Assembly: GCA_046331665.1 (NCBI GenBank)
Contig: JAXLQK010000029.1
Coordinates: 2,784-66,783, forward strand
DNA from: Terriglobia bacterium
GTDB taxonomy: Bacteria; Acidobacteriota; Terriglobia; Versatilivoradales; Versatilivoraceae
Direction of reading: 5' to 3'
Length of the DNA stretch: 64,000 nt
Part shown: positions 1,566-63,552 of the stretch, piece by piece
How positions within the stretch are numbered: position 1 is the first letter of the stretch
Layout: each line of letters begins with the position of its first letter
Notes under the pieces: model-generated
Databases searched by the model: none
What the model saw: the letters and a program-made list of their open reading frames with translations, nothing else
Told to the model about the DNA's origin: nothing
Made by a program: the position numbers and the translations under genes

Positions 1566-2912
1566 TTATTTGCCCCGCGGCCTCATACCCAGGAGGGTTT
1601 GTGGCGTCTCGAACAAGATGGCTTGGGCTATCCTTAAGGCATCTTCACGGGAATATTGTCCTTGTTCCACTCTTTGCGCCAGCACTTGAGACAAAATTTT
1701 GCGGACCATGATGACTTTGGCATAGGTCCATTCCACAACGTAGGCATCTGAAAAGAACCCGACCTGCTTGTTCATGGGGAGCATATCCAGCCGCTCAGAC
1801 ATCACGCGCCGAATGGCCTCCGGGAAAAAGTTGTGCCACCAGTAGCCAGCCAAACTGAAATTCGGCAACTCACGCGCCAGCGTACAAAGGGATTGATTGG
1901 CGGCCGCGTTGGCTAGGAAACACTGAAAGCGAAGTTTTGGGTGCTGTCCAATGATCGATGCGATTTGAGCAATCGATTCTTGCGATACCCGGCTGGCGGT
2001 TTCGTAAGGCAGGGGCTCCGCTGCGAAACTAAACTGAAGGACAATCTTGTCGCCGTGTTTTTCCAATTGCTTCAAGAAGGCGTTGTTGACATAAGAAGCG
2101 TAGATGTCTCGTTCGACCGGTCCTGCTTGTGCGCGGCGGGCCAAGGCCGCCGCAAACTCGTCATCGCCGACTTCACGGAAATGGATGTCTGTCGAGACGT
2201 GGGTGGCTGTGGCAAGGACCTTGTCATAGGGGATACTGCTCACGTAATAGTGAACGGCTTCATGGAGATCCTCCACGGAGCGGATGGTGCGCTGTGCGGG
2301 AGCCCGGCCTCCGGCCCCAATCGGGGAGGGAGAGCTGAGGGGGGACTTTCCCCAGCACAACTCCAATTCGTAGAGTGCCGTGTCAAACTCACCCCACTGG
2401 CAGCGAGTAAAGAAACCCCACTCCAGCGCATATTGAAACCGGTCGTCGTCCTGGCCTTGCCCGCGACGGGCAATCTCCGTCCCGGTGCGTTGAATGTTGA
2501 CCCGGTCCAGGATGGAGTGGTGCCAGCTTCGATCTTCAGACCGTTCTCGAATTAAGGCATCCAGCCGGCGCCAGTTGTCCGAGGTAATAGGCTCCGTCCA
2601 TTGATAAAGGTCTCTGAGCAGGATTCGAATTCCCCAGGACGTGCTCGTGTTGTAGACCTTGGAAAGATAGGGGAGCGCTTCCTGGATGCGCTGGTGGGCT
2701 TCCTGGTCCGACGGAAAGTTCGGATATTCGGTCAGGCGCTTTCCCGTTGGGCAACCAGCTCCATAGAGATCAGAAACCGCCATGTGGTAGAGCAAGACAT
2801 CATGAAGGCCTCGCGCTCCCAGCTTGCCTCCGATCAAATGGGTGTGAATGTCGAGGATCGGAATTTCGGCAAGGGCCTTTTCCAGTTCGAGAGTCAAATC
2901 ACTGAGATTCAT
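1566..2912 (-). CDS. Glucuronate (uronate) isomerase family protein (UxaC-like TIM-barrel metal hydrolase fold)
   Basis: N-terminal 'PILDIHTHL' resembles the 'DYHCHL' metal site of UxaC. C-terminal 'GYWWHNF...FFSDAYVVEWTYAKVIMVRKIL' is collinear with the UxaC 'SGWWFND...[20 protein letters not shown]' region. Its start overlaps the upstream pfkB stop by 14 nt. Confidence 0.6.
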   Translation of the reverse strand: MNLSDLTLELEKALAEIPILDIHTHLIGGKLGARGLHDVLLYHMAVSDLYGAGCPTGKRLTEYPNFPSDQEAHQRIQEALPYLSKVYNTSTSWGIRILLRDLYQWTEPITSDNWRRLDALIRERSEDRSWHHSILDRVNIQRTGTEIARRGQGQDDDRFQYALEWGFFTRCQWGEFDTALYELELCWGKSPLSSPSPIGAGGRAPAQRTIRSVEDLHEAVHYYVSSIPYDKVLATATHVSTDIHFREVGDDEFAAALARRAQAGPVERDIYASYVNNAFLKQLEKHGDKIVLQFSFAAEPLPYETASRVSQESIAQIASIIGQHPKLRFQCFLANAAANQSLCTLARELPNFSLAGYWWHNFFPEAIRRVMSERLDMLPMNKQVGFFSDAYVVEWTYAKVIMVRKILSQVLAQRVEQGQYSREDALRIAQAILFETPQTLLGMRPRGK

Positions 2913-3843
2913 GATGGCGTTCTCCTTTTAAAAAGGCTTTTACCGCGTCAAAATTTGGAATCCCCTCCTGCCCGCCAGCCCGAAGAGCCTTCATCGCCGC
3001 CGCCGCCGAGGCCAGTTGGACTCTCTCGACCAGGTTCATCCCATGAATTAATCCGGCCGCATACGCCCCATGAAAGACGTCACCGCAACCGGTTGTATCA
3101 ACAGCCTTGATGGGGAAGGCGGGGAAGTGGATGGGTGCTTCAATGTGGCTTTCACTGACATACCAACAGCCTTCGGCCCCGCAGGTGGTGATGACGACCT
3201 GGCGGCCTGACCTCCAAAGCCTTCGGGTCGCAGCAGCCGGATCACTTTCCCCAGTCAGTGAGGCGGCAAACGCCTGGGAGACAATTAAATGGTCGACTTG
3301 ATCGAGTAATTCCTCAACCCAGGGAGATCCTTTTCCTTCCAAATCCCCAACGACGGGGATTGCAGCCTGTCTGGCAATCCGCACAGCGCGCAACATGCCT
3401 TTGGGGCTCAAATAGTCGACGAATAAGACACGGGCGCTTTGAATAATTTCTGCTCCGGGCAGATCATCGTCTGCGCCCACAAAACCGTGCAAGTCGAAAA
3501 AAATGTTCCTCGTCTTTCGACCTTCATCGACAATGATGGTGGAGTGAATGGGTTGTGCACTCTTGCGACGAATGAGATGATCGAATTTGATCCCTTCAAG
3601 GCTCAAGCGTGTGATGACGTATTGGGAGAGTTCATCGTCGCCTAACACACCCGCATACGAGCAGCGACAGCCGAGGCGAACGGCTGCCACCAGGGCAGTC
3701 GCCGTCAAGCCGCCGCAATGACGCTCTCTTCGAGAGATCGGGATCTTGGCGTCGGCGGGAGGGTAGGCAGGGACAAAGATGAGGTCGTCGACCGCCACCA
3801 CACCCAGGCCCAGAACATCTATCGTTTTGCGGTCTGCCATCAT
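2899..3843 (-). CDS. PfkB-family sugar (acid) kinase (ribokinase/KdgK-like)
   Basis: PfkB signature 'DTTGCGDVFHGAYAAGL' near the C-terminus. N-terminal 'IDVLGLGVVAVD' Gly-rich region. Confidence 0.75.
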   Translation of the reverse strand: MMADRKTIDVLGLGVVAVDDLIFVPAYPPADAKIPISRRERHCGGLTATALVAAVRLGCRCSYAGVLGDDELSQYVITRLSLEGIKFDHLIRRKSAQPIHSTIIVDEGRKTRNIFFDLHGFVGADDDLPGAEIIQSARVLFVDYLSPKGMLRAVRIARQAAIPVVGDLEGKGSPWVEELLDQVDHLIVSQAFAASLTGESDPAAATRRLWRSGRQVVITTCGAEGCWYVSESHIEAPIHFPAFPIKAVDTTGCGDVFHGAYAAGLIHGMNLVERVQLASAAAAMKALRAGGQEGIPNFDAVKAFLKGERHHESQ

Positions 3844-4481
3844 AAAGAGGCCAGCCAGCTTCTCATTGCTTTGGGGTCTTCCCCGAACATCAATGACCCC
3901 GGAACAATATAATCCGCCCCAGCCTCATGAAGGAGGGGAACCGTCTGCCGTCGAATGCCTCCATCGCTTTCAATCTCTGTTTTCAGGTTGCGCTCTTGGA
4001 TGATGCGGCGGGCTTGACGGATTTTGTCGAGAATTCCCATTTCCATCGAAGCGCCTTTGATGCCCATGGCCGTACCCACGATGGTAACAATATCCAGATA
4101 TTTCCAATAGGGTTCAAGGACCTCAATCGGCTCATGAATCAGAAGGGACACCCCGGCATATTTCCCCTGAGCTCTGATGGCTTGTAACACCGAAGCCGGG
4201 TCCTTGGCTGCGTCGAAACAAAAAATGATTCCATCCGCCCCCGCTTCAACGAAGGGTTCGATCCAGTCTGCAGGATCCGTGACCATGAGATGCACTTCGA
4301 AAGGGAGTCGCGTATGTTTTCGGAGCGTCTTTACGAGATCCGGGAAGAACAACAGATTCTTGACGTAATGGCCATCGGCGACATCCAAATGAAATCGCTC
4401 TGAAAACGGTTCCACCCTTTTCATTTCGGATTCCAGATTGGCCAAGTCGGCCGACCAGAGAGAAGTCGAGCACTTAAGCAT
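3840..4481 (-). CDS. Ribulose-phosphate 3-epimerase family protein (Rpe/AlsE-like)
   Basis: 'STSLWSADLANLESEMKRV', 'FHLDVADGHYVKNLLFFPDLVKTL', 'HLMV' and 'ESDGGI' match the Rpe (beta/alpha)8 motifs. Start taken at the internal Met 4 nt after the upstream gene's stop; the longer ORF reaches 4550. ATGA overlap with the pfkB start. Confidence 0.7.
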   Translation of the reverse strand: MLKCSTSLWSADLANLESEMKRVEPFSERFHLDVADGHYVKNLLFFPDLVKTLRKHTRLPFEVHLMVTDPADWIEPFVEAGADGIIFCFDAAKDPASVLQAIRAQGKYAGVSLLIHEPIEVLEPYWKYLDIVTIVGTAMGIKGASMEMGILDKIRQARRIIQERNLKTEIESDGGIRRQTVPLLHEAGADYIVPGSLMFGEDPKAMRSWLASL

Positions 4482-5301
4482 GTTTAAGTTCCTTTGGTAA
4501 GAAATATACGGCGAAAAATTCATTGAGGAATTTTTGAACGTCTTCTCCATGCCGCTTCACGTCGACGGCCTTTGACGTTAGTTCGCGAAACTCGGCGCCC
4601 GGGATGGATTCGGCCAGTACTTTTCCGAATTCAAATGGGTGAATCGGGTCCTGATGGTTCGCCAGAATCAGGGTGGGAACCCGGATTTTTTTCCATTCCT
4701 GCCGGCTCGAACAGGGAGCATCGAGAGGAATTTGCTCCAGCTTGACCACAGTCTCTGCTGCCCGGGGGTGGGCAAACTGACCTTCCAAGGATTTGGCCGA
4801 TTCCATCGATTGACGTTCAATTTCCAGGTAGTTCTCTGAAAGCTTGAATTGTTCTAATCCTGCTTCGGGGCCCATTTGACGAATGAGGCGCGCCATTTCA
4901 GCAAAGACTCGGGCATTCTGTTCATTGGGAGAGTCCAGCCAGGCCGCACGGGATTGTACGAGCCCGAGAACTCGATCTGGAAAACGCAGGGTGAAATTCA
5001 GCGTAATGGCCGCACCCATGGAGGTCCCGCCGATCACGGCGCTGTTGATTCCCAAGTGGTCCATGAAAACGCCGAGGTCATCTGCAAAAATGGAAAGGTG
5101 GATTCTCTCAATATTTCCGAGCGGGCGAGTCTGTCCGTGGGCACGGCAGTCAAAGGCAAGAAGACGAATCCCCGAAGGAGGAGAGAAAAGCCCAAAGGGT
5201 TGGGACACATCACCCCCCAACCCATGCTGAAAGATGAAAGGGATTCCTTCTCCGTTTTCTTGATAATAGAATTCCAACCCATCGTGTTTGAAGAGCGGCA
5301 T
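4474..5301 (-). CDS. Alpha/beta-fold hydrolase (possible lactonase/esterase)
   Basis: 'HGLGGD' oxyanion region and 'GTSMG' nucleophile elbow (GxSxG). Length 275 aa. Confidence 0.75.
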   Translation of the reverse strand: MPLFKHDGLEFYYQENGEGIPFIFQHGLGGDVSQPFGLFSPPSGIRLLAFDCRAHGQTRPLGNIERIHLSIFADDLGVFMDHLGINSAVIGGTSMGAAITLNFTLRFPDRVLGLVQSRAAWLDSPNEQNARVFAEMARLIRQMGPEAGLEQFKLSENYLEIERQSMESAKSLEGQFAHPRAAETVVKLEQIPLDAPCSSRQEWKKIRVPTLILANHQDPIHPFEFGKVLAESIPGAEFRELTSKAVDVKRHGEDVQKFLNEFFAVYFLPKELKHA

Positions 5302-27768: not shown

Positions 27769-28701
27769 CTACGCGCGCGGCAGTTCAACTGTAAAAGTAC
27801 CGCCCAACCCCTTACCCTGTACTTCCGCAAACCCTGCCTTTGTGCCGCTTGACAATTGAGCGAACGATGAATAACCCCAAGCCTGTTCCTTGGACACGCC
27901 TCGATTCGCGATGAGTTGCCCGATAAAATCTTTGAAAAATTCTCTTGAGCCGATCTCCGGGAATTCCAATCCCGAGCGGTTACGCACCCGGATCACTGCC
28001 CGCGACGACCACCAGCAGCCATCGCTGCAGCCATCGGACGCTTCCGGAGAGTTATTATTGACCCGCCATCCAGCAGTGTTGGTCAATGCGCCCATTTCTT
28101 CGTCACCCCAAACTGCCGTAGGGGAGTCATCAACTTCCAATTCCTGGAAGACCATCGGTCCTTCATTAAGTGGTACCGTGCTCGAGCCCATTCCATGCAC
28201 TCCCGGACTAATGGAGCCAGTAGAATGCGATCCCGTTGGGCCGCCTCGCTCCGATGGGAAAGCCGGCCAGTGCGCAAGACTTGCTCGACCGTATGCAGCA
28301 GGCGGTCGTTATCGGCAAGCATAATGTTATAAAACTGAAGGCGAGTTGCCTCGTCGACTCGCGGGTTTTCAGAGTTTCCAAATAAAGGCGGATGGAGGTG
28401 ATGGGAGTCTTCAGCTCGTGAGTGACTGCATTGATGAATCCAGTCATGTTGTTCATTGGCAGGGCACTGCGAACCAGAAAGGTCGTATTCAGAATGAGTC
28501 CGGCAATGATGGCTATAAAAAAAATGCATCTCTAAAACCAGGGATGGCTACCTGCCGCCAATGCAAAACGACCCATCCCACATTCAAGGCGACGGCCAGT
28601 GCAACCAGGCAGGTCCCCAGGGCAATAAAGAATATGATGGAACTCTTCCGACTTGGTACATGCATCGAGCCAATTCTAGGCGAAGGTCGCGAAGGGAGCA
28701 A
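27769..28701 (-). pseudogene. Sensor histidine kinase fragmented over all three frames
   Basis: TM segment in 28513..28701. H-box 'AVTHELKTPITSIRLYLETL' in 28208..28456. 'IMLADNDRLLHTVEQVLR' in 28083..28529. HATPase end 'GKGLGGTFTVELP' in 27769..28200. Confidence 0.6.
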
Positions 28702-28957
28702 ACCGGAATATTGATGGGGCTACAATTCCTAGGCTTGCGTCGCGAAAATTTGGTGTAGAGTATTCCTGTGCGTCTTTGCCAGGTTCCATTCTCGCCTCAT
28801 GGAAAATCTTAATGGACGGTTGGGCGACTCCCTAAGCCCGGAGTCATGAAATTCATTTGGGTTTGTTCCCGAAATGCATAGACTTCCGGGATGCAGTTCG
28901 GGACCTTCGGAAAAATCAGCGATTGCTTGATCTAGCCATGAACCAGGAGAGGTTACG

Positions 28958-29965
28958 ATGACGAGTGAAAAACCAAATCCAGAATTAATTTTTGACGCTC
29001 TGAATGCCTACCAAAAATCAGCCACCTTGAGCGGCGCCATAGAACTTGATCTATTTACGGGTGTGGGCGAAGGGAAGAATACAGTTTCCCCAATTGGCCG
29101 AATACTGCAAAGCCACTGCCAAAGGGATCAGGGTGTTGTGTGACTTTATGGTCATTCAGGGCTTTTTGGGAAAAGATGACGCCATTATCTTTTGACCCCC
29201 ATCTCAGCCGTTTCTGGATCGAAAATCCCCAAGTTATCTCGGGTCCATCGTTCGATTCCCCAAACAACCCCTTCGATAGAGGGGGCCTTTCAAGATGTTG
29301 CCTCGTTGGTCCGGAAGGAGGGATCGGTTCTCGCAGGGGACGGTAGAGGCGAACAATCCCATTTGGGTCGAATTTGCCAGAAGCATGGCACCATTGGCTC
29401 TCCCGGATGGCCGAGGCAGTAGCCAAGTTAGTTGAGCCGAAGGCGGGAAATCTTCCCAAGGTCCTGGATATTGCCGCTGGACATGGATATTGGCGGGGAT
29501 CTCGATCGGGAAGTGAATCCCCAGGCTCAGATTGTTGCACTCGACTGGCCTGCGGTGCTTGAAGTGGCAAAGACGAACGCCTCAAAAGCAGGGATGGATG
29601 GGCGATTTCATACGCTCCCGGGAAGTGCCTTCGAAACGGAATTTGCGGGTGAATATGAAATTGTCCTTTTGACAAATTTCCTTCACCACTTTGATCAGGA
29701 AACCTGTAAAGGGCTGATTGGGAAAATCAGAAAGTCCATAAGCAAAGGGGGAAGGACTTTGACGGTGGAATTTGTGCCCAACGAAGATCGGGTCTCTCCA
29801 CCGGTGGCTGCCTCATTTGCGATGATGATGCTCGGAACGACGGCCTCCGGGGATGCCTATACCTTCTCGGAGTACGAACAAATGTTTCGGGAAGGTGGGT
29901 TTTCGCGCTCTGAGCTGCATACGGTCCCAAACGCACCTCAGAGTGTGATCGTCAGTTACGCCTAA
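28958..29965 (+). pseudogene. SAM-dependent O-methyltransferase (family-2 type) broken by several frameshifts
   Basis: Dimerisation-domain start 'SGAIELDLFT' (28958..), motif I 'VLDIAAGHGYW' in the frame of 29374.., and 'LLTNFLHHFDQETCKGL' C-terminal domain in 29432..29965. Confidence 0.55.
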
Positions 29966-30057
29966 TTGTCGCGGAAACGGCAATCTGCTGTATGAATTGG
30001 CGTTATAAATTTTGTGATTCCCTGTTCAAGGCACTTGAACTTCTACCAACAGGCTTG

Positions 30058-30209
30058 GCGCCTTACGGAGCTTTGTCGATACATGATGGGGGTTTCTATA
30101 AACAGATCGCCCCTAGCGGGGCTCAATCGGCTCCAACCTCTCTATGCGACCAGTCTGGTTCATTCTGCGTGCGGCAATCCAATTTGTAGTTTCCCGTTGG
30201 ATCAATAGG
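30058..30209. repeat. ~150-bp repeat, left copy, near-identical (>90%) to 30896..31043 in direct orientation. Contains hairpin GCCCC-TAGC-GGGGC.
   Basis: 68-nt core 'gggggtttctataaacagatcgcccctagcggggctcaatcggctccaacctctctatgcgaccagtctg' is identical in both copies. Confidence 0.8.
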
Positions 30210-30325
30210 TTGTATTTGATTTTTCGTGGGCCAATGGGTGAATTCTGTCTGTTGGCTTGCCTGACTTGATTCCCCTTAGCTCTCGCTTAGACAGACCTGT
30301 TTGCGAGATTTTGCCGAGCAAATGG

Positions 30326-30406
30326 CCAAGCTCCGTCAGGAGCGACCTGTATATAGATATGTGTGTCCCCAACCTTCCAAGCTCCGGGTTGTGATGACCT
30401 GTTACC
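30326..30406. repeat. Two REP-like ~55-bp units (CCAAGCTCCGTCAGGAGCGACCTGT.TATAGA...) abutting the tnpA 3' end
   Basis: Same unit as the array at 31106..31392. Contains the GCTCC-GTCA-GGAGC palindrome. Confidence 0.7.
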
Positions 30407-30412
30407 TTTACA

Positions 30413-30871
30413 TCAGTGGGTGACTTGAATATGCATTTCATCAAAATCAACATCAAACTTCTTTAGCAACTGCATATACTCGTCCCGAAATCTTAATTTC
30501 TTGTGGTGTTGTTCTTGCAGTTGAATGTAACGGATTACTTTTCCTAGTTGTGAGTGAGAATAAGAAAACGCACCAAAACCCTCTTGCCAATTGAATTTTC
30601 CGCGGAACCATTTCTTCTCGTTGATGAACCCCGCAGATATGGCCTTAATGTCCCGAACAAGATCAGATAGGGCAATATCGGGTTTCATGCCTAGGAGTAA
30701 ATGAAGATGGTCGGGCATGCTGTTTACGGCGATTAGTTTCTGTCCACGGTTGTGGACAATGCCAGTGATGTATTTGTGAATCTCCTCCTTGAAATCCTTC
30801 TTTATAAGGGATTCTCTGGCCTGAACGGCGAAAATGACATGAACATAAATTTGGGAATAGGTGTTAGCCAT
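30413..30871 (-). mobile_element. tnpA: IS200/IS605-type Y1 (HUH) transposase, REP-associated (RAYT-like) TnpA, 152 aa
   Basis: 'MPDHLHLLL' HUH motif, catalytic Tyr region 'VIRYIQLQEQHH', and N-terminal 'YVHVIFAV' typical of IS200 TnpA. Flanked by REP-like arrays. Confidence 0.8.
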
Positions 30872-30895
30872 GTCAAAAAACAGGCCGCTCCTACG

Positions 30896-31043
30896 GAGCT
30901 TCGTCGATACTTGGTGGGGGTTTCTATAAACAGATCGCCCCTAGCGGGGCTCAATCGGCTCCAACCTCTCTATGCGACCAGTCTGTCTATTCTGCGCGCG
31001 GCAATCCAATTTTTAGTTTCCCGCTGGATCGATAATTTTATCG
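30896..31043. repeat. ~150-bp repeat, right copy (direct repeat of 30058..30209), immediately upstream of the tnpA start
   Basis: See the left copy. Confidence 0.8.
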
Positions 31044-31105
31044 ATGTTTTGCCGAGCCGCTAAGAGTTTATTTTGAATAGGGTGTTGTCCTAACAGGAAG
31101 CATTT

Positions 31106-31392
31106 AGCTCCGTCAGGAGCGGCCTGTATATAGATATGTGTGTCCCCAAATCCTTCCAAGCTCCGCTAGGAGCGACCTGTTTATAGATATGCGTGCCCCC
31201 AGATCCTGCCAAGCTCCGTTAGGAGCGTCTCGTTTATAGACCTTGCCTGCGCGAAATGGCCAAGCCTGTTAGAGCGTCCTGTTGGCAGACCTGCCCTGCG
31301 CAAAAATCACCAAGCTCCGTTAGGAGCGACCTGTGTATAGACCTTGCCGAGGCGAAAATCACCAAGCTCCGTCAGGAGCGGCCTGTCCACTA
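31106..31392. repeat. Tandem array of six ~55-bp REP-like units (palindromic core AGCTCCGTCAGGAGCG + semi-conserved tail)
   Basis: Units begin near 31106, 31158, 31211, 31262, 31312 and 31364. Tails are related to each other, not unique spacers. Confidence 0.75.
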
Positions 31393-32713
31393 AGCAAGCA
31401 TCTTGGGGATAACATTACCTTCCACGTCGGTTAATCGGAAGTCTCTTCCCATGTGACGGTAGGTGAGTCGCGTGTGGTCGAAGCCCAGGCATTGCATCAG
31501 GGTGGCCTGCAGGTCATGAACGTGGACGGATCTTCGACAATATTCGTGACAAAAGCCGTCGGTTTTCCTAATAACTTGGCCCCCTTTGATTCCCCCGCCC
31601 GCCAGCCACATACTATAGGCGTTGGGATGGTGGTCGCGCCCTGCATTTTCCGCATCTTCAGGCTTGCGGATTTCCACCATCGGGGTGCGCCGAATTCTCC
31701 GCCCCAAACAATCAGGGTCTCGTCGAGCAGCCCTTTGTTTAAGATCCTTGATTAAGGCCGCAGTTGATTTGATCTTCTACAGCGCTTGGGAAGTTTTCTG
31801 TTGAGCTCAACGTGATCATCCCAGCTGGCGTCCATCATCAAGATAAATCGGACACCCCGTTCCACCATGCGACGCGCTAACAGACAATTCGTCGCATATT
31901 GTTTTAGGTCCTCGTCACTACTCGTTACTCCGTATTGGTCAAGAATGCTTTGAGGTTCATTGTCGAAGCTTAACAAACCAGGGGCCTCCATTTGCATTCG
32001 AAATGCCAGTCTACAAGCTGAAATACGGAGTGCGATTTCCATATCCCCCGTGCTGCTGGGCAAACGCTCTTCATTCAAGTCCCGAAGGGTCTCCAGAGCC
32101 AGCTTCGCGATGCCTGGTTAATGCCAGAGGGGTTAGAGAGGTAGAGGATCGGGTCTCCGCTGTTTCGGAAGACTGTCCCCTGATAATGTGACGGCAGAAA
32201 GCCGCTGGAAAAATTACTGGCACCGCCACTGGTTCCGACGCCCGAGGTGAGCACGACAAAGCTCGGCAGATTTTGCGATTCACTCCTCAGTCCTACACCG
32301 ACCATGCACCCAAGAAGTCGGCCTTCCGAATCGGTAATGGACCCGTGAATAGAAGAAGTGATCAAAGGGTGGTGATTAAAGGTACTGGTGTGCAGCATCC
32401 GGATCAGACAACTTCGTCTCCGCAGGAACTGATATGGGGCAGCAATCGGAAAATGGCACTGACATTCCTGGCTGCCTGGAATTTGTAGTGACTCGCCATA
32501 ACGGCGGCCGTGGGCTTGATAAAAGCCAGTTTTAGATCCTTCGCTTGGCGAGGGGGGAAGAGATTGCCTGACGGGGCTTTTCGGCAGAGCCATTTTCATC
32601 AAACAGTTCGAATTGCCGTCCTCCTCCATAAACATAAAAATCACATGCTTGGCTTTTGGCGCAAAGTGCGGAAGCTGGGGGCCAGAGGATTCACCCGTGG
32701 CAGAGCGTTTCAT
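31390..32713 (-). pseudogene. DUF1501-family (sulfatase-like) protein split into three frames and lacking the Tat-signal N-terminus
   Basis: The three ORF pieces 32075..32713, 31752..32078 and 31390..31707 are collinear with the intact paralogue 62119..63552 ('PKAKHVIFMF', 'CLLARRMVERGVRF', 'HDLQATLMQCLGFDHTRLTYRHMGRDFRLTDVEGN'). Confidence 0.7.
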
Positions 32714-35436
32714 GGCCGTCTGCGGTCAATAAACTGTAGCCAAAGCCATGACCCCGACTCCCCTGGCACACCGTTGCAGGAAATCTCTTCGTGATTGAGT
32801 TGTTTGAAGTGACGAAAATCCATGGACATTGAGCCCCTCGTAATGAATTCATCGAGATTCATAACCACGCGTCCCAGTCCCACCCATGCGGCCACATCGA
32901 CAGGATCGGACCCCGCAATGGGGTTGGGGGCAAGAATCTTGATTGCATCGGGGGTCGTTTCAAAGAGACGACGTTGATCCCAGTAAAAGCGAGCAAGCCG
33001 ATCACGCTCGATTGAGTTTGGTTTACGATTGAGACAAAACTCATAGACGGTATCGAGCCGGCCATTCCAATCGCTGGGCGCTTCCTGCAAAGCCCTCATC
33101 GCCAGGGATTGGGCCGCCTCGGTAAAGACCGGATCATTCAAAAGGTTGAGCGCCTGGAGAGGCGTGTTGGAGCGCCGGCGTTGACTGGCGGCATTGTTGG
33201 CGTTGGGCTCGTCAAAGTTGGCCAATTGTGGATAAGGCGAGGTTCTCTGAAAATGGATGTAGAGACCGCGGCGATAGCGGTCTTTCCCCGTCGTTTCCTC
33301 CCATTTGGCATTTCCGTAAGTAAGTTTGGTGACACTCTCCGGTTGGGGCGGTCGAATACTCGGCCCCCCGACGGCTGGATAGAGCAGACCGCTGGCAAAG
33401 AGAGCGGCATCCCGAATCCCTTCCGCGGACAAGCGCAGACGATTCTGCCGGGCGAGTAGCGTATTGGCAGGGTCTTTTTCTCTCAAGTCGGGCCGGTCAT
33501 GGGAAGATTGTCGATACGTGGCAGACATGACGATCAACTTGTTCATCTGTTTCAGGCTCCAGTCCCGGTCCATGAATTCGACGGCCAGCCAATCCAGGAG
33601 TTCGGGATGGGTCGGCTTTTCCCCTTGGAGGCCAAAATCATCGGAAGTTCGGACAATCCCGCGTCCGAAAAATTCCTGCCACATGCGATTCATGGTGACT
33701 CGGCCGGTCAGCGGGTTCTCGCGCGAAACAATCCACTGAGCAAATTGTAAACGGGGTTGCGCCGAAGTGCGGGGTGGAGCAGGGAAGATGGCAGGGATCT
33801 CAGGCTGAACTTCGATTCCGGCTCTGCGATAGTCCCCGCGGATGGCAATGAATGTCTTAACCGGTTCGGGGTTCTGACTAATGACAAAAGCCTGGCTTAA
33901 TGCAGGATAAGATCTATCCAGGTCCTCCAGCTTTTTCTGCAATTCCTTGAATTTTTCTCTTTGGGCCTTGTCCTTTTCGATGTCAGGTCCCGGTGATTTG
34001 ACAAAATAATCGGTCAGGCCATCATTTTCCTTTGTGGTCCTCTTGTCGGGATCCCGCCGCAATATCAAATCGACGGAGTCCACCATGGCCCGGATTCCCG
34101 TTACCTGGTAATCCCAGGCGAGATTTTTTCCCGGAGAGTCCATCGCCTGACGCAGGTTCGCTTCCCATTGCGCCTCGAGCACAGGGACATCTAATTCCGC
34201 CAGCAATTCGGCCCTTTTTTTACGGTATTCAGGCTGATGTTGGAGGAAGGGACCCAGCTCCCCGGGGAGAGGAGCGTCTATGGTCTGGTCTTGCGTCTGA
34301 TTCATGAAAGCATAGAGTTGATAAAAATCTTTCTGAGTGAAGGGGTCATACTTGTGATCATGGCATTGAGCACAACCCACGGTCATTCCAAGCCACACAG
34401 TTCCTATGGTATTCGTCCGGTCAACCAATTCTTCAAAGCGCGCCTCTTCACGTTTTACTCCGGCTTCCCGGTTCTTCAGCCCATTGCGATGAAAACCTGT
34501 GGCGACTTTTGGGTCGACGGCCGACTTGGGCAGCAGATCCCCCGCAATCTGTTCAATTGTAAACTGGTCAAAAGGCATGTCACGATTCAAAGCTTCAATG
34601 ACATATTCCCGCCAACGCCAGGCATAGGGACGAGGGAGGTCCTTCTCAAAACCATCACTGTCGGCATAGCGTGCCAGATCCAGCCATTGTCGTGCCCAGC
34701 GTTCTCCGTAGTGGGGAGAGTTAAGCAGGCGATTGACCACCTTCTCATAGGCGTCCGGGCTGGAGTCAGACAGGAATGCCGTGACCTCTTCCATCGAGGG
34801 AGGAAGCCCGATGAGGTCAAAGGTAACGCGGCGAATCAGCGTTGTTTTGTCCGCCTCGGGCGAAGGAGTAATTCCTTCGGATTCCAGCTTGTGAAGGACA
34901 AAGGAGTCAATGGGATTTTGTACCCAGGAACCCTGCTTTACTGTGGGCGGCTCAGGCCGATGGACCGGCTGAAAGGACCAATGGGCTTTACGTTCCGCGA
35001 GGGAAGGTTTTTGGGAGGTAACTGGAGTTCTGGTACTCTCCGGCCATGAAGCTCCTTGATCGATCCAGGCCTTCAACCTGGCAATCTCGGCGGGGGTCAA
35101 CGTATCAGCCGGCGGCATCTTAAAGCCTTCCTTGTTGCTTGAGACACGCTCGATCAACTTGCTTTGAGCGCTATCGCCCGCCACAATCACTGCTCCAGAA
35201 TAACCGCCTTTCAAGGCGTCTACTTTCTTATCCAGACGCAATCCCACCATTTGAGTGTCAGGACCATGGCATTGGTAACACTTGGTGTGAAAAATCGGCT
35301 CAATCTCACTGACAAAATCAACTGGATTCTCAGTCGCGGCAGAACAGACCGCAGGTTGCCAAAGCATCGGGCAAACGAATATCCCGATCATGAGAAGCAA
35401 AAGTCGCCATCGGATTGGAATATGTCGAAGGTACAT
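32710..35436 (-). CDS. DUF1549/DUF1553 protein with planctomycete cytochrome-c-like (PSCyt) N-domain, secreted
   Basis: Signal peptide, 'CYQCHGPD' PSCyt motif, and paralogous along its length to 55362..58049 and 59607..62111. Extends ~40 aa beyond the conserved 'NLDEF(I/L)TR' end of the paralogues. Confidence 0.85.
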   Translation of the reverse strand: MYLRHIPIRWRLLLLMIGIFVCPMLWQPAVCSAATENPVDFVSEIEPIFHTKCYQCHGPDTQMVGLRLDKKVDALKGGYSGAVIVAGDSAQSKLIERVSSNKEGFKMPPADTLTPAEIARLKAWIDQGASWPESTRTPVTSQKPSLAERKAHWSFQPVHRPEPPTVKQGSWVQNPIDSFVLHKLESEGITPSPEADKTTLIRRVTFDLIGLPPSMEEVTAFLSDSSPDAYEKVVNRLLNSPHYGERWARQWLDLARYADSDGFEKDLPRPYAWRWREYVIEALNRDMPFDQFTIEQIAGDLLPKSAVDPKVATGFHRNGLKNREAGVKREEARFEELVDRTNTIGTVWLGMTVGCAQCHDHKYDPFTQKDFYQLYAFMNQTQDQTIDAPLPGELGPFLQHQPEYRKKRAELLAELDVPVLEAQWEANLRQAMDSPGKNLAWDYQVTGIRAMVDSVDLILRRDPDKRTTKENDGLTDYFVKSPGPDIEKDKAQREKFKELQKKLEDLDRSYPALSQAFVISQNPEPVKTFIAIRGDYRRAGIEVQPEIPAIFPAPPRTSAQPRLQFAQWIVSRENPLTGRVTMNRMWQEFFGRGIVRTSDDFGLQGEKPTHPELLDWLAVEFMDRDWSLKQMNKLIVMSATYRQSSHDRPDLREKDPANTLLARQNRLRLSAEGIRDAALFASGLLYPAVGGPSIRPPQPESVTKLTYGNAKWEETTGKDRYRRGLYIHFQRTSPYPQLANFDEPNANNAASQRRRSNTPLQALNLLNDPVFTEAAQSLAMRALQEAPSDWNGRLDTVYEFCLNRKPNSIERDRLARFYWDQRRLFETTPDAIKILAPNPIAGSDPVDVAAWVGLGRVVMNLDEFITRGSMSMDFRHFKQLNHEEISCNGVPGESGSWLWLQFIDRRRP

Positions 35437-55361: not shown

Positions 55362-58049
55362 ATGCGCCCCATACCCTTATTAAAAACATGGAGACTCATT
55401 AGTCGTCTGACGGTTTTCATGATCTTGCTGATTTGGGGTGCCACTTCTCTGGCTCAATCCAAGCCTGAACAAGATCAAGCTGCACTAAGGACCTTGGAGA
55501 AGAATTGTTTCTCGTGTCATGGCGAGCTACGGATTTCCAATCTCGATATGCGGCAGAGGGAGAGCCTGCTGAAAGGAGGAACACGTGGCCCGGCCGTAGT
55601 CCCGGGAAAAGCAGAAGAAAGCCTGATATATCAAGCGGCTGCTAGAACCGGTGAACTGAAGATGCCCCCGCAGCAAACTGGATTAACTCGGGAAGAACTT
55701 GAGTTATTGCGTGCTTGGATCGACGCTGGTGCCACTTGGACACAAGGGACTGCCACCTCGACGCGTAAGTCAGAGCCTTCTTGGTGGTCTTTTCGCAAAC
55801 CCGTCCGTCCCCCTGTGCCAGAACCAAGGAACAAAGAATGGGTTCGCAATCCCATTGATGCATTTGTCCTGCAAAAACTTGAGGAACAACAGCTTACCCC
55901 CGTGGCTCAGGCGGACAAGCGAGTCCTGTTGCGCCGTATTTATTTTGATCTCATTGGGCTACCACCGACCACGGAGGAACTCGATCGCTTTATGAGGGAT
56001 TCCTCTCCCGATGCCTATGAGAAAGTGGTCGATTTTCTCTTGGCATCCCCCCATTACGGAGAACGTTGGGGAAAACACTGGTTAGATGTCGTTCGCTATG
56101 CAGATACCGGGGGTTATCAAACCGACCTCTACTATAAAGACGCTTGGCTATATCGTGACTATGTCATTGCTTCCTTTAATAAGGACAAGCCCTATGACCG
56201 TTTTGTCCAGGAACAGATTGCAGGAGACGAACTTTGGCCCGACAATCTCGACCTCCATGGGAGTTATTTCATTCCGGAAAAGGAGATGGAACACATAGAA
56301 GCCAGGATTGGAACCGAGTTGTACACCATCAGTCCCGTTTACCACGAGTCTGGCCTCGATGTAGAAAACTACTTTGACATGCAATGGACCGACTGGGTCG
56401 ATGTCACTGGTTCCGCCTTTATGGGTTTGACCTTGGGCTGTTCCCGATGCCATGACCATAAGTTTGATCCAATTTCGCAGAGGGATTACTTTGGACTGCG
56501 AAGCATCTTCGCCGGAAGTGACCGAGTCGAGATTCCGTTGGTTCACCGGATGGATCTGTTTGACCAGTGGCAGTCGTACCCAAGGCACATCCGCGTCCAG
56601 CAACTGAGAGCGGAAGCCGAGAAAATCACGAGCCAGTCTAAACGCAGAATCATCGAGTCCTTGAAAGGGACTTTCCCCAAAGAGGTGCTGGAAGCGTACG
56701 AAATCCCAGAGGGAAAACGTAGCCCCGAGCAACAGATTCAGGCGGCCAAATTTCAGGAGGCCGTCGGACGGATCAAGGAAGAAGAAATTCTTTCAAAGAT
56801 GATTCCGGCGGAAAATGAAAAATACAAAGCCCTTCTGGAAGAGATTGGGAAAGCCTATCTGCAGACCCTCAAGCCCATGCCCACCGCCACGGTCCTGGGA
56901 CATGCTGAGGTGATTCCGGAAATCCATCTCCTGGTGCGGGGAGACTATCGAAATAAAGGAGAGCGGATCACCCCTGCCTTCCCCAAGGCCCTTCGCGAGG
57001 AAAACGAAGTGATTGAAGAAACTTCCCTGCGACCCTTTGTTCCGCAAAGGCGAAAGGCTTTGGCTCTGTGGTTGACGAAACCCGACCATCCTCTAACGGC
57101 TCGAGTGATGGTGAATCGACTCTGGCAGGGACACTTTGGCAGCGGTCTGGTCGCCACTCCAAATGATTTTGGCCGTCAGGGCCAGCCACCGACCCATCCC
57201 GAACTGCTCGACTGGTTGGCCACGGAGTTTGTCCGGCAAGGTTGGAGCATCAAACGGATGCATCGTTTGATGGTTCTTTCGAACACCTATCGGCTATCCA
57301 GCATGGGGAATGAAGCCGATTTGAAAATCGATCCTCAGAATCGATTTCTTTGGAGAATGAATCCACGCCGCCTGGAAGCGGAGGCCATTTGGGATTCGGT
57401 CCTGGCGGCTGCGGGCACGCTTAACCTCAAGGCCGAGCCATTGAGATACTATCGACCGTTGAAACAAGCCAACCCTGCACTATTGAATGAAATGGGAGGC
57501 CCGCCGGTTTTCCCTCCCTTATCGCAGGATGAGCGGGACGGCGGAGACTTGCTTGAAAAATCTCAATGGCCCGACAGCCTGGATCCTAACGAATACACAC
57601 GAAGAGGCGTTTACGTGTATGTGAAGCGTTCCTTTTCCTTTCCGATGTTCAAGACATTTGATGCACCAGATTCTTCACTGAGCTGCGAGCGCCGTCAGAA
57701 TACAACGGTGGCCCCCCAGTCCCTGGCGTTGATGAACAACGAGTTCATCCACCGGCAGGCAAGGGCCTTCGCCTTGCGATTGTTGAAAGAAAATGGAGAT
57801 CAACTTTCCGCTTGCATTGACGAGGCTTGGTTGATCGCCCTCAACCGGGCTCCCACTCAAGATGAGAAGGAGAAAAATATGGAATTCCTTCTCAAATTGG
57901 AAGAGAGCTGGAAAAATGGGACGAGAAAGGAAGAAGCTGAGAATTGGCTCCCGGAGTCACTTCGCTCAATCTCTCCCGCTCGCGCAGAGGCACTAACCAA
58001 GCTTTGCTTGACGATTTTTAATTTGAACGAGTTCCTGTATGTCGACTAG
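55362..58049 (+). CDS. DUF1549/DUF1553 protein with PSCyt N-domain, secreted
   Basis: Signal peptide, 'CFSCHGELR', 'HYGERWGKHWLDVVRYAD'. Paralogue of 59607..62111. Confidence 0.85.
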   Translation: MRPIPLLKTWRLISRLTVFMILLIWGATSLAQSKPEQDQAALRTLEKNCFSCHGELRISNLDMRQRESLLKGGTRGPAVVPGKAEESLIYQAAARTGELKMPPQQTGLTREELELLRAWIDAGATWTQGTATSTRKSEPSWWSFRKPVRPPVPEPRNKEWVRNPIDAFVLQKLEEQQLTPVAQADKRVLLRRIYFDLIGLPPTTEELDRFMRDSSPDAYEKVVDFLLASPHYGERWGKHWLDVVRYADTGGYQTDLYYKDAWLYRDYVIASFNKDKPYDRFVQEQIAGDELWPDNLDLHGSYFIPEKEMEHIEARIGTELYTISPVYHESGLDVENYFDMQWTDWVDVTGSAFMGLTLGCSRCHDHKFDPISQRDYFGLRSIFAGSDRVEIPLVHRMDLFDQWQSYPRHIRVQQLRAEAEKITSQSKRRIIESLKGTFPKEVLEAYEIPEGKRSPEQQIQAAKFQEAVGRIKEEEILSKMIPAENEKYKALLEEIGKAYLQTLKPMPTATVLGHAEVIPEIHLLVRGDYRNKGERITPAFPKALREENEVIEETSLRPFVPQRRKALALWLTKPDHPLTARVMVNRLWQGHFGSGLVATPNDFGRQGQPPTHPELLDWLATEFVRQGWSIKRMHRLMVLSNTYRLSSMGNEADLKIDPQNRFLWRMNPRRLEAEAIWDSVLAAAGTLNLKAEPLRYYRPLKQANPALLNEMGGPPVFPPLSQDERDGGDLLEKSQWPDSLDPNEYTRRGVYVYVKRSFSFPMFKTFDAPDSSLSCERRQNTTVAPQSLALMNNEFIHRQARAFALRLLKENGDQLSACIDEAWLIALNRAPTQDEKEKNMEFLLKLEESWKNGTRKEEAENWLPESLRSISPARAEALTKLCLTIFNLNEFLYVD

Positions 58050-58061
58050 CAGGAAAGGAGT

Positions 58062-59564
58062 TTGGTGATGAACCCCTTTGGATTTGGAAATAGCCGTTGT
58101 GCAGGCGAAGGTCCTGCGGTTCGCTCTCGCCGTGAGTTTCTGGCCAGATTTGGCGGCGGATTCGGCACTGTGGCAGCCATCCATTTGCTTGCCAAAGAAG
58201 GGTTCTCAGGAATTGCAACGACACCTGCACCAAATCCACTCTCGGCAAAACCGCCCAATTTCCCGGCCAAGGGGAAGGCCGTGATTCATCTCTTCATGCA
58301 CGGGGGGCCGAGCCAAGTGGATACCTTTGATCCCAAGCCACTGCTTTCGCGGCTTCACGGCCAACCTCCCCCACCCGGCATCTTGAAGGCAGAACAGAAG
58401 ACCTTCTTACAGTTTACCAAGATCAACGAGGCGCCTCTTCTGGCTCCCCGCGCAACCTTCAAAAGGTATGGGCAATCCGGCCTCGAAATTTCAAACCTGT
58501 TTGAAAACGTCGCTCAATCGGCGGACGACCTGGCTGTCATTCGGTCTTGTTATCATGACGCATTCACCCATGGCCCCGGAGTGCAAATGATCAATAGTGG
58601 CGTCACGCGGCTCGGGCACCCCAGTATGGGAGCATGGGTCATTTACGGGCTTGGCAGTGAGACGGAAAATCTGCCTGCATACATAGTCATGGTGACCGAC
58701 GGGAGTATTAGCGCGGGGGCGCCAGGCTATGGTTCAGGTTTTCTTCCCGCCATCTACCAAGGAACATTGCTCCGAAAAAAGGGAACGCCAATTCTCAATG
58801 CTCGGGCCGCGGACGATTTCTCCCCTGGAGAGCAACGTGAAGTAATCGATTTGCTCAGCTGGCATAATCAGCGACATTTGGCGGCACATCCCGAGAACTC
58901 AGAGCTGGCAGCCAGAATCTCTTCTTACGAATTGGCATTCCGAATGCAAGCCGCAGTCCCTGATTTGACGGATCTCTCCAATGAGAGCGAAGCCACAAGA
59001 AAGCTTTACGGCCTCGACAATGAAACGACGGAACCCTTCGGCAGAAATTGCCTTTTGGCGCGTCGCATGGTGGAACGAGGGGTGCGGTTTATTCAAATCT
59101 ATAAAGACGGATGGGATGCCCACACCAGTTGCGATGAGAACCATGCCAAAAACTCACGCGCCGTGGATAAGCCGATTGCAGGCTTGCTCACCGATCTAAA
59201 ACAGCGAGGACTCTTAGATTCCACCCTGGTGGTTTGGGGAGGTGAATTCGGCCGAACGCCGGTCACCGATGGCCAGTCGAATAGCGATGTGCGAACAGGG
59301 GACGGGCGTGATCACAATCCGTATGGCTTTACGACCTGGATGGCGGGTGGTGGCATCCAAGGTGGAAAGGTCATCGGAGCCACTGACGAGATAGGATTCC
59401 GGGCCACTGAAGATCCAGTTCACGTTCATGATCTTCATGCCACCATCCTTAGCCTGCTCGGGCTTGATCATACCAAGCTGACTTTCTTCTTTCAGGGACG
59501 AAACCATCGTCTTACCGATGTGGGGGGAGACAACAATCTGGCGCCACGGCTTATCTCAGCGTAG
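58062..59564 (+). CDS. DUF1501-family (sulfatase-like fold) protein with Tat signal
   Basis: 'SRREFLARFGGG' Tat motif. 'CLLARRMVERGVRF' and 'HDLHATILSLLGLDHTKLTF'. Confidence 0.85.
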   Translation: MVMNPFGFGNSRCAGEGPAVRSRREFLARFGGGFGTVAAIHLLAKEGFSGIATTPAPNPLSAKPPNFPAKGKAVIHLFMHGGPSQVDTFDPKPLLSRLHGQPPPPGILKAEQKTFLQFTKINEAPLLAPRATFKRYGQSGLEISNLFENVAQSADDLAVIRSCYHDAFTHGPGVQMINSGVTRLGHPSMGAWVIYGLGSETENLPAYIVMVTDGSISAGAPGYGSGFLPAIYQGTLLRKKGTPILNARAADDFSPGEQREVIDLLSWHNQRHLAAHPENSELAARISSYELAFRMQAAVPDLTDLSNESEATRKLYGLDNETTEPFGRNCLLARRMVERGVRFIQIYKDGWDAHTSCDENHAKNSRAVDKPIAGLLTDLKQRGLLDSTLVVWGGEFGRTPVTDGQSNSDVRTGDGRDHNPYGFTTWMAGGGIQGGKVIGATDEIGFRATEDPVHVHDLHATILSLLGLDHTKLTFFFQGRNHRLTDVGGDNNLAPRLISA

Positions 59565-62111: not shown

Positions 62112-62118
62112 CTGCCCA

Positions 62119-63552
62119 ATGATTCTCCATCTACAGCAAACTCTGTTGAATCGCCGAAATTTCCTGGGTCAATGTGGAATTCGTTTGGGCTCTGTCGCTC
62201 TGGCATCCCTGCTCGCTGATCAACACTCTCTTTCGTCGAATACGAGGGAACATTCAAATCCACTCGCCCCCAAACCCAGCCACTTTCCCGCCAAAGCAAA
62301 GAATGTCATTTATCTGTTTATGGTGGGAGGTCCGAGCCATTTGGATATGTTTGAGTACAAGCCCAAGCTCACCCAACTTACGGGAGAACCAATTCCGGAA
62401 TCTTATCTCCGAGACCAGAAATTCGCACAGATCAAGGAGAAACATCCCAAGATCATGGGGAGTCTTTGGAAGTACGCGCAGCATGGAGGGAGCGGCGCTT
62501 ATGTTTCTGAGCTATTGCCTCAGACGGCCTCCATCGTCGATGAGTTGACTATTCTCAAGACGGTTAAAACCGAGGAGATTGTTCATCCGTTTGCGGAATT
62601 ACTCATGAATACCGGTGTCCGTGACTACGGAAAACCTTCCCTGGGTGCATGGGTCACCTACGGGTTGGGCAGCGAATCGCAGAACCTGCCGGGTTTCGTC
62701 GTTCTGCAAACGGGTGGGTTTGCAAGGGCCAAAGCGGGAAACTACGGCAACGGCTTCTTGCCGGCCGCCTATCATGGCGTTCCTCTGCGAAATTCCGGCG
62801 AGCCCATCCTGAATCTTCAATCACCCCCGGGGGTTTCTGCCCGCCATCAAGAAGAACTGGCCGAAACGGTTACCGCGCTCAATGAACTTCGATTCGAACA
62901 AATGGGAGATGCCGAAATTTCGGCCAGAATTACGGCATACGAACTGGCTTTTCGGATGCAGATGAACGCCCCGGAATTGATCGACTTGACGGGCGAGAGC
63001 AAGCAGACACTGGCGCTGTATGGCGCGGAATTGGACAAGCCGTCCTTTGGACGCAGCTGCCTGTTGGCTCGGCGAATGGTGGAACGTGGCGTGCGGTTCG
63101 TTCAGCTATTTCATGGAGACTGGGATCATCACGGCAGTATCGCGGAGAAGCTCCCCGTCCTTTGCCACCAGATCGATCAAGGATGCGCGGCATTGGTGAA
63201 GGATTTAAGGCAACGCGGACTGCTGGATGAGACGCTGGTGGTTTGGGGGGGCGAATTCGGCCGCACACCTGTGGCACAACAACAAGAGTCGACCGCAGTC
63301 GGGCGTGACCATCATATTGAAGCCTTCGCCATTTGGATGGCCGGCGGCGGGACGAAGCCGGGGACGACGATTGGAGCGACCGACGACCTTGGCTACTACC
63401 CCGTTGAAGATTCCATTCACGTGCATGACCTGCAAGCCACGATCTTACACTTGTTGGGATTGGAACACACCAAGCTGACCTACCGATTCAAAGGACGTGA
63501 CTTTCGATTGACCGACGTCGGTGGAAATGTCGTGACCAAGGTGATTTCCTGA
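62119..63552 (+). CDS. DUF1501-family protein with Tat signal
   Basis: 'NRRNFLGQCG' Tat motif. Collinear with 58062..59564. Confidence 0.85.
   Translation: MILHLQQTLLNRRNFLGQCGIRLGSVALASLLADQHSLSSNTREHSNPLAPKPSHFPAKAKNVIYLFMVGGPSHLDMFEYKPKLTQLTGEPIPESYLRDQKFAQIKEKHPKIMGSLWKYAQHGGSGAYVSELLPQTASIVDELTILKTVKTEEIVHPFAELLMNTGVRDYGKPSLGAWVTYGLGSESQNLPGFVVLQTGGFARAKAGNYGNGFLPAAYHGVPLRNSGEPILNLQSPPGVSARHQEELAETVTALNELRFEQMGDAEISARITAYELAFRMQMNAPELIDLTGESKQTLALYGAELDKPSFGRSCLLARRMVERGVRFVQLFHGDWDHHGSIAEKLPVLCHQIDQGCAALVKDLRQRGLLDETLVVWGGEFGRTPVAQQQESTAVGRDHHIEAFAIWMAGGGTKPGTTIGATDDLGYYPVEDSIHVHDLQATILHLLGLEHTKLTYRFKGRDFRLTDVGGNVVTKVIS

Follow-up and report, generated by a model that had tools for sequence, protein, structure and literature searches.

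Does the small transposase gene in this stretch of Terriglobia DNA belong together with the hairpin repeats that surround it, or was an ordinary insertion merely caught in a local duplication? The stretch (hereafter, the window) comprises 64,000 nucleotides of contig JAXLQK010000029.1 from assembly GCA_046331665.1, and the gene, tnpA, encodes a transposase of the HUH/Y1 type. An initial annotation had described the locus as a cluster of repetitive extragenic palindromic (REP) sequences, similar to REP doublets forming hairpins (REPINs) or bacterial interspersed mosaic elements (BIMEs), that is maintained by a REP-associated tyrosine transposase (RAYT). We found that cognate hairpin units are present in a REPtron-like arrangement, the same as in homologue loci, whereas the protein is not a RAYT. 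The locus is probably of the REPtron type, with a low-copy, IS200-like Y1 (HUH) transposase of subclass 1.2 embedded in its own cognate repeats.

We classified the transposase by hidden Markov model scores, hits in the Protein Data Bank (PDB), and signature motifs. The sole intact open reading frame (ORF) in 30040–31392 lies at 30413–30871 on the minus strand and encodes 152 aa including MPDHLHLLL, as initially annotated. The product matched Pfam Y1_Tnp (PF01797) with 88.2 bits (cut-off, 23) and passed NCBIfam transpos_IS200 (NF033573; 72.4 bits, cut-off 55), whereas it failed REP_Tyr_transpos (30.9 bits, cut-off 80). The structure of ISDra2 TnpA was matched at E = 1e-8, with alignment of DHLH (the HUH motif) and the catalytic tyrosine, Y115; other IS200-type structures were also matched, IS608 weakly, and the Escherichia coli RAYT structure (4er8) was not among the PDB matches at E up to 10. 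The Y---NP motif of RAYTs is absent from the window protein, where the Y motif reads YIQLQEQHH. A 60-member alignment of representatives of 50%-identity protein clusters yielded the family consensus DHxH / WQ / YIxNQExHH, followed by a C-terminal tail (K..F.EEY...L....I.YDE.YLF), and no tnpB was found at the window locus. Judged from these sequence features, namely WQ, Y---Q--HH, the length of 152 aa and the conserved C-terminal tail, we assign the protein to TnpAY1 subclass 1.2 (IS200-like); it is not a RAYT by membership, though its mode of action may be that of one. A protein of 100% identity has been recorded as "IS200/IS605 family transposase" from a Terriglobia metagenome-assembled genome (MAG). 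Additionally, relatives of ~290 aa (P0122, P0124, P0125, P0130, P0131, P0132, and others) carry two tandem Y1 domains, each matching the whole query. As TnpA acts as a dimer, these relatives could be single-chain dimers.

The repeat unit consists of a 5-bp GC-rich hairpin followed by G-NN-(C/A)TGT, to which inner units add TT(A/G)TAG and ~20 nt of free spacer. The units form polarised runs, in which tail-bearing units end in a tail-less hairpin and which are aimed at the gene from both sides. When we anchored the units on the tail TGT[TC]T[AG]TAG only, and hence independently of the stem sequence, 295 of 353 distinct units (84%) had a perfect 5-bp stem ending 4 nt upstream of the tail, against 5.5% in shuffles. 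Compensated stems included GCTCC/GGAGC (141 units), GCCCC/GGGGC (39), ACCCC/GGGGT (29), GTCCC/GGGAC (12), and ACTCC/GGAGT (9), among others, and further loci had ATCCC/GGGAT, AACCCG/CGGGTT, or GTTGC/GCAAC stems with the same tail. Since the stems covary while the tail stays conserved, selection acts on the structure of the hairpin and on the sequence of the tail. Reading of a single-stranded hairpin together with a nearby short motif is established for the Y1 enzymes of IS608 and ISDra2 and for E. coli TnpAREP, and by analogy with these a covarying stem with a fixed tail is the pattern to be expected of such an enzyme.

The 5′ foot of the hairpin is (C)CAAG or variable, with AG alone constant, and TT(A/G)TAG lies ~8 nt 3′ of the stem. 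A canonical GTAG-type REP was rejected, as the GT[AG]G tetranucleotide is not found at the 5′ foot. A clustered regularly interspaced short palindromic repeats (CRISPR) array was likewise rejected, since the spacers are ~20 nt and mutually related and no cas-like ORFs are adjacent. Some Bacteroidota arrays (GTAGCTCCGTTAGGAGCGTCCTGTTT) have a period of 25–26 nt, consisting of hairpin and tail without spacer and with GTAG abutting the next stem; such arrays were seen in L008 (1–80), L060 (3120–3236), L037 (6400–6777), and L191 (downstream of tnpA), several of them at contig ends.

We investigated whether the units accompany the gene elsewhere, using 80 metagenome loci picked by the TnpA protein alone (59–68% identity). 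The pattern GCYCC-N3-4-GGRGC occurred within 1 kb of tnpA in 59 of the 80 loci, with a density of 2.03/kb near the gene and 0.037/kb far from it. With a caller accepting any 5-bp stem with the flanking signature, units were found within 1 kb in 78 of 80 loci (2.79 vs 0.092/kb). Upstream units were mostly forward (99 forward, 26 reverse), and downstream units were mostly reverse (132 reverse, 39 forward). The nearest upstream hairpin was forward in 51 of 56 loci, with a modal position of 28 nt before the ATG; the next unit outward bears the tail TT(A/G)TAG. The window matches this family pattern exactly, with forward units starting 79 and 28 nt before the ATG and reverse units past the stop codon. 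The cultured Flavobacterium sp. F-380 and Bernardetia sp. show the same architecture with other stems, and the stems vary with the TnpA lineage (GTTGC/GCAAC in Bernardetia; others in L185, L162, and L177).

The fixed distance between hairpin and ATG and the mirror polarity on both sides indicate that gene and units constitute one module. These results support that the repeats are cognate hairpin (REP-like) units of the adjoining Y1 transposase; both at the window locus and across the family, cognate REPs in inverted orientation lie on either side of the gene, as in a REPtron. They also bear on two other explanations. The first is an ordinary IS200 insertion beside a chance local tandem duplication, with the 52-bp units being a satellite unrelated to the transposase. 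Although the units are confined to the tnpA locus within the window and the two repeat blocks described below show the collinearity that a duplication would produce, the same units, in the same orientation and at the same start-codon distance, flank homologues in 78 of 80 independent loci, the core recurs in at least 65 assemblies, and stem covariation shows selection on the hairpin, all of which makes this explanation extremely improbable. It is also very unlikely, if slightly less so, that the hairpins belong chiefly to the host (as terminators, for instance, or as sites of protein binding between convergent genes) and that tnpA tends to insert beside them in the way that some insertion sequences target REPs. 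Gene–hairpin spacing and polarity are those of a single module, the stems are only 5 bp long, and the units co-vary with the TnpA lineage, whereas a host role would account for an array that fills the intergenic gap at two gene 3′ ends and for the terminator-like score of four units, and the conserved tail could be an insertion target.

At the window locus, the region 30040–31392 spans the gap between a truncated O-methyltransferase ORF (plus strand, ending at 29965) and a broken DUF1501 gene, which faces it with its 3′ end (minus strand, stop at 31390). The left block starts with a degenerate tail-less hairpin unit (F2′, 30040–30073, minus strand), which reads AGCTCCGTAAGGCGCC..CCTGT on the minus strand, followed by a tail-bearing unit (F1t, 30095–30123, minus strand) with the hairpin GCCCC-GCTA-GGGGC at 30109–30122 and then GATCTGTTTATAGA on the minus strand. 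Direct repeat A (30058–30209), which comprises two inverted units and ~90 nt, is a second copy of the region upstream of tnpA and lies beyond the gene's downstream units. These downstream units are on the plus strand: a degenerate unit at 30270–30325, whose alignment partner is the first unit of the right array; an intact tail-bearing unit at 30326–30377, with its hairpin at 30330–30343 followed by GACCTGTATATAGA; and a truncated unit at 30378–30412 (CCAAGCTCCG...), which abuts the tnpA stop codon. Upstream of tnpA (motifs DHLH, WQ, and YIQLQEQHH) are, on the minus strand, a tail-less hairpin unit (F2, 30880–30901; hairpin at 30887–30899) at the family modal position and a tail-bearing unit (F1t, 30923–30951; hairpin at 30937–30950, stem GCCCC/GGGGC), of which the former starts 28 nt and the latter 79 nt before the start codon; the region directly upstream of tnpA is direct repeat A′ (30886–31043).

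The right array (31103–31392, plus strand) contains six ~52-bp units, which like the plus-strand units on the left derive from the hairpin GCTCC-N4-GGAGC, starting at 31103, 31156, 31209, 31260, 31310, and 31362; the 31260 unit is degenerate, without a stable hairpin, and the 31362 unit is terminal and has no tail. Tandem Repeats Finder placed this array at 31106–31386 with a period of 52–53, and its end coincides exactly with the stop codon of the DUF1501 gene remnant. The initial count of two units on the left and six on the right, ~55 bp each, was thus correct for the right side; the left side has one good unit, one truncated unit, and the degenerate one at 30270–30325, which had not been counted, and the period is shorter. 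The core AGCTCCGTNAGGAGCG, allowing up to two mismatches, occurred seven times in the 64 kb, always at the tnpA locus, where 0.09 occurrences would be expected by chance. A BLAST search with both repeat blocks found no further copy of either in the 64-kb window, no Rfam family was found in the window, and a scan of 29.8–31.6 kb found no sigma-70 promoter.

The direct repeats consist of two aligned parts, 30064–30157 with 30892–30985 (94 nt, 97% identity) and 30162–30207 with 30989–31034 (46 nt, 91% identity), with a copy spacing of 828 and 827, respectively. Overall, 140 nt are aligned at 93.6% identity. The reported identity of over 90% between ~150-bp repeats therefore holds, whereas the longest exact match is 71 nt (30087–30157 and 30915–30985) instead of 68 nt, and the right copy, in which similarity starts at about 30886–30892, had been placed a few bases late at 30896. 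The observation that the repeat begins with the reverse complement of the REP core was also correct: each copy holds two inverted units, one of which (30109–30122 and 30937–30950) carries GCCCC/GGGGC as a compensated stem. When the two halves were aligned, the duplication was seen to reach past 150 bp, with the spacer and the first following units collinear in both copies. The "150-bp repeat + array" is thus one composite block (two inverted units, ~150 nt, and forward units) that flanks tnpA on both sides, its two copies being in direct orientation.

Direct repeats of at least 40 nt bracketed tnpA in 21 of 74 homologue loci, with a maximum of 356 nt, and in several of them the long direct repeats are whole composite elements on both sides of tnpA. 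As similar bracketing recurs and in several loci involves whole composites, the block–tnpA–block arrangement in the window is a recurrent layout rather than a unique accident. The initial view of a local duplication with the transposase caught between the copies is consistent with the collinear blocks; it does not hold as a one-off event, given this bracketing and the fact that the block is organised like a composite dispersed in a relative (see below). The two copies may have arisen by tandem duplication of an 828-bp segment and subsequent loss of one tnpA, by insertion of a second block, or as an element dimer. The ~90-nt non-REP part of the 150-bp repeat was not conserved in the closest relative, L016, in which the units alone match, and hence we assign no function of its own to this part.

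Units also occur away from tnpA. The exact 22-nt pattern AGCTCCGYNAGGAGCGNCCTGT was present in at least 119 stretches from at least 65 assemblies and more than 10 phyla, and only ~10 of the at least 119 stretches listed with this pattern had a tnpA homologue in the same stretch. According to submitter labels, the hosts included Bacteroidota, Acidobacteriota, Brocadiales, Verrucomicrobiota, Chlorobiaceae, Kryptoniota, Sumerlaeia, Cloacimonadales, Acidimicrobiia, Anaerolineales, and Heliomicrobium. The commonest gene-less composite was a forward doublet followed by a reverse doublet. Blastocatellia STL-ACI6 has at least 10 copies of an asymmetric, gene-less element of ~160 nt with this forward-doublet/reverse-doublet organisation and unique flanks, in which unique DNA begins right outside AGCTCC.../...GGAGCT. 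A relative of the source organism, with a TnpA 75% identical and neighbouring orthologues 70–84% identical to those of the window, has tnpA-less blocks composed of two reverse units, ~150 nt, and two forward units, with homology ending at ACAGG.../...CCTGT; these gene-less blocks share the organisation of the duplicated block in the window. Repeated inverted pairs of the REPIN type were thus found in the STL-ACI6 elements and the CAWBAT01 blocks, whereas the window has two copies only, beside tnpA.

Two observations on related genomes are worth recording here. Window positions 1591–5301 align with L016 3826–7546 at 74% nucleotide identity over 3.7 kb (70–84% protein identity). The taxonomic labels conflict, the L016 MAG being labelled Acidimicrobiia and the window TnpA being recorded from a Terriglobia MAG, and one of the two labels is probably wrong. 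In addition, anammox genomes of several genera carry an inverted-pair element of ~100 nt with the conserved flanks AAGATAGGATGCCATAACAGATATT ... ATTTACCCTATT (L044, L047, L071, L075, L082, L086, L089, L093, L097, L099, L107, L110, and L113). The same element occurs in L094, a MAG labelled Anaerolineales, which suggests transfer or bin contamination.

The dispersed elements raise a serious rival explanation, which we nonetheless consider unlikely: an active insertion sequence with long hairpin-doublet terminal inverted repeats, in which forward doublet, tnpA, and reverse doublet move as a whole between phyla. The gene-less copies would then be deletion derivatives resembling miniature inverted-repeat transposable elements (MITEs) or palindrome-associated transposable elements (PATEs), and the system would be selfish rather than domesticated. 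The 828-bp spacing of the direct repeats would in this case approach the length of one element, and the locus could be what is left of a tandem dimer. The tnpA locus is non-syntenic between the window and L016, which is also in line with a mobile element.

Several findings weigh against the REPtron-type reading, and some of them favor such an insertion sequence. The commonest gene-less element is precisely the locus minus tnpA, i.e., what a deletion of the gene would leave, which also fits an insertion sequence with miniature derivatives. TnpA is 60–78% identical across phyla and comes with one shared 22-nt core, which points to horizontal transfer of gene and sites together and away from long domestication. 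The protein is a member of the NCBIfam IS200 equivalog and hence bears the name of an ordinary IS200/IS605 transposase. Furthermore, no hairpin units were found in the other ~62 kb of the window outside 30.0–31.4 kb. The composite element of Bernardetia lies at the tnpA locus only within a 601-kb replicon, and dispersal is therefore not universal. Finally, the initial annotation had proposed folding the units, and the conservation of hairpins is evident across the tail-anchored set, whereas the single hairpins of the window are short and weak (5 bp, −5.2 kcal/mol, z of about −1.8 each). It is thus the comparative evidence that carries the hairpin argument.

Conversely, the gene has a housekeeping-like distribution. 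TnpA protein clusters occurred on 1–3 contigs each. Subfamily-level matches were found in 2 of 72,556 plasmids and in no phages; the two plasmid matches were from Bernardetia (52% identity), on a 600-kb replicon with housekeeping genes, and from Persicobacter (36% identity), on a 632-kb record without annotation. In Flavobacterium sp. F-380 (GCA_014305115.1; L202 9800–10560), the tnpA homologue lies between hemF and hemB in the haem-synthesis cluster, and it occupied the same site in all four inspected contigs from different samples. At this site, the upstream unit is duplicated along with the last hemF codons. The restriction to 1–3 contigs, the near-absence from plasmids and phages, and the fixed haem-cluster site favor a low-copy, chromosome-bound gene, and the copy number in the source genome would likewise be low. 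The ends of classical IS200/IS605 elements are moreover direct and not inverted, and for subclass 1.2, as well as for the IS200 Group 3 that may be equivalent to it, published accounts give a low copy number and no duplicates (PMC6006769, PMC5581495).

Under the REPtron-type reading, a TnpA dimer would bind the hairpins in single-stranded DNA, such as that of the lagging-strand template. It may cleave and rejoin DNA at or beside the conserved tail via a 5′-phosphotyrosine bond, and such cleavage and rejoining could act in trans to move or copy repeat elements that have no gene. The six-unit run and similar arrays may grow by local re-cleavage or by recombination between neighbouring units. A wider proposal, which seems to us plausible but somewhat short of probable, is that the Y1 transposases of subclass 1.2 represent a second REP-associated lineage independent of the classical RAYTs, whose repeat "dialect", made up of a covarying 5-bp stem, the tail CTGT-TTATAG, and polarised doublets, has remained nearly unchanged across more than 10 phyla. 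If this is the case, the gene travels with its recognition sites, and the conserved tail marks a common cleavage or guide code; arrays of the six-unit type could then arise where the end of an element is a preferred insertion site.

The locus shares properties with several known systems. For a bacterial transposase that has become domesticated and has a population of miniature elements of its own, the REP/RAYT system is the principal example; it has been studied almost only for the class 2 enzymes of Proteobacteria, and the REP sequence differs per species. Similar to REPtrons with RAYTs (TnpAREP class 2, such as E. coli RayT and the Pseudomonas REPIN-RAYT systems), the family described here combines a Y1 HUH gene flanked by inverted short hairpin repeats with gene-less copies, which in some genomes lie scattered and frequently form inverted pairs or clusters, and the gene is low-copy and nearly absent from plasmids. 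In contrast, the protein is of class 1 (IS200-like), with Y---Q--HH rather than Y---NP, the repeats lack the 5′ GT[AG]G foot and have a conserved CTGT-TTATAG tail 3′ of the 5-bp stem, and they form polarised doublets or arrays with a core that is common across phyla and not species-specific. BIMEs resemble the window array in that hairpin units of mixed orientation follow each other at regular intervals within an intergenic gap where genes have their 3′ ends, but they alternate unit by unit with defined linker motifs, whereas here unidirectional runs (six forward units) switch once per block.

Classical IS200/IS605 elements have the same catalytic fold, and their subterminal hairpins lie close to short conserved motifs, at which IS608 and ISDra2 are cleaved. 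PATEs are gene-less IS200/IS605 derivatives made of element ends only. Unlike the inverted hairpins seen here, the ends of the classical elements are direct repeats on one strand without terminal inverted repeats. The classical elements are also multi-copy and near-identical, often on plasmids, and often with tnpB, none of which was seen here. In the TIRYT/TIRtron systems (Di Nocera et al. 2013, PMC3733652), the Y1 gene is bracketed by long inverted repeats belonging to moderately abundant repeat families, and the repeats occur singly, as dimers, or in clusters, including in Acidobacteria (PMC3733652). Most TIRYTs, however, are of subclass 2.1 with a helix-turn-helix C-terminal domain, and their inverted repeats share GGGGWSAS; neither feature is present here. 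Contrary to the statement that such systems are barely described outside Proteobacteria, REP/RAYT systems have already been reported there (PMC3733652, PMC6006769, PMC5581495).

TnpAY1 subclass 1.2 was defined by Quentin, Siguier, Chandler, and Fichant (2018), who reported WQ, YIKNQKEHH, a median of 148 aa, and a low copy number (PMC6006769). It was described as close to IS200 yet without insertion-sequence properties, with "REP: no" in Table 1, and as found mostly in Cyanobacteria and Bacteroidetes (PMC6006769). Our family agrees with it in WQ, in Y---Q--HH (YIxNQExHH here), in length (152 aa in the window), in a C-terminal tail of ~30 aa, and in the lack of tnpB. It differs in the HUH motif (DHLH here, DH[IV]H in the published description), in its occurrence also in Acidobacteriota, Planctomycetota, Verrucomicrobiota, KSB1, and other phyla, and in the cognate hairpin repeats at 78 of 80 homologue loci and in the window, where the published subclass is REP-less. 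The repeats are therefore a departure from the published description and not from the sequence definition. The group called "RAYT-like IS200 Group 3" by Bertels et al. 2017, which has no duplicates and abundant flanking 16-mers (PMC5581495), is a plausible candidate equivalent of the window TnpA family.

No entry for subclass 1.2 or similar unit was found in the supplementary REP table of PMC6006769. A full-text literature search with the core strings returned no paper, and a search for later work on subclass 1.2 returned only the original paper. The repeat association of subclass 1.2 and the cross-phylum core thus appear to be new, i.e., undescribed in the searchable literature. If subclass 1.2 keeps cognate repeats, and with a single, nearly universal core and tail, the association between Y1 transposases and repeats arose or persisted on both sides of the IS200/RAYT divide, and natural sites with compensated stems, in their thousands, could reveal the DNA recognition code of an entire enzyme subclass. 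Flavobacterium sp. F-380 and Bernardetia sp. Wsw4-3y2 would then be cultured hosts for direct tests. On the practical side, annotation treats subclass 1.2 genes as ordinary IS200/IS605 transposases, and metagenome assemblies can break at the repeat arrays.

The genes flanking the repeat locus (27769–29965 and 31390–32713) look decayed. The coding sequence of a histidine kinase is scattered across several frames, and an 82-aa ORF retains only half a HisKA domain; the O-methyltransferase ORF corresponds to no more than positions 84–210 of the profile, and the DUF1501 gene has fallen into three ORFs. This decay does not reflect general assembly noise, since ORFs elsewhere in the window are long and intact, reaching 1116 aa. 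The 64 kb contain three paralogous pairs of PSCyt/PSD1 (DUF1549/DUF1553) and DUF1501 genes (32710–35436, 55362–59564, and 59607–63552), and only the pair adjoining the repeat locus has a broken DUF1501 partner.

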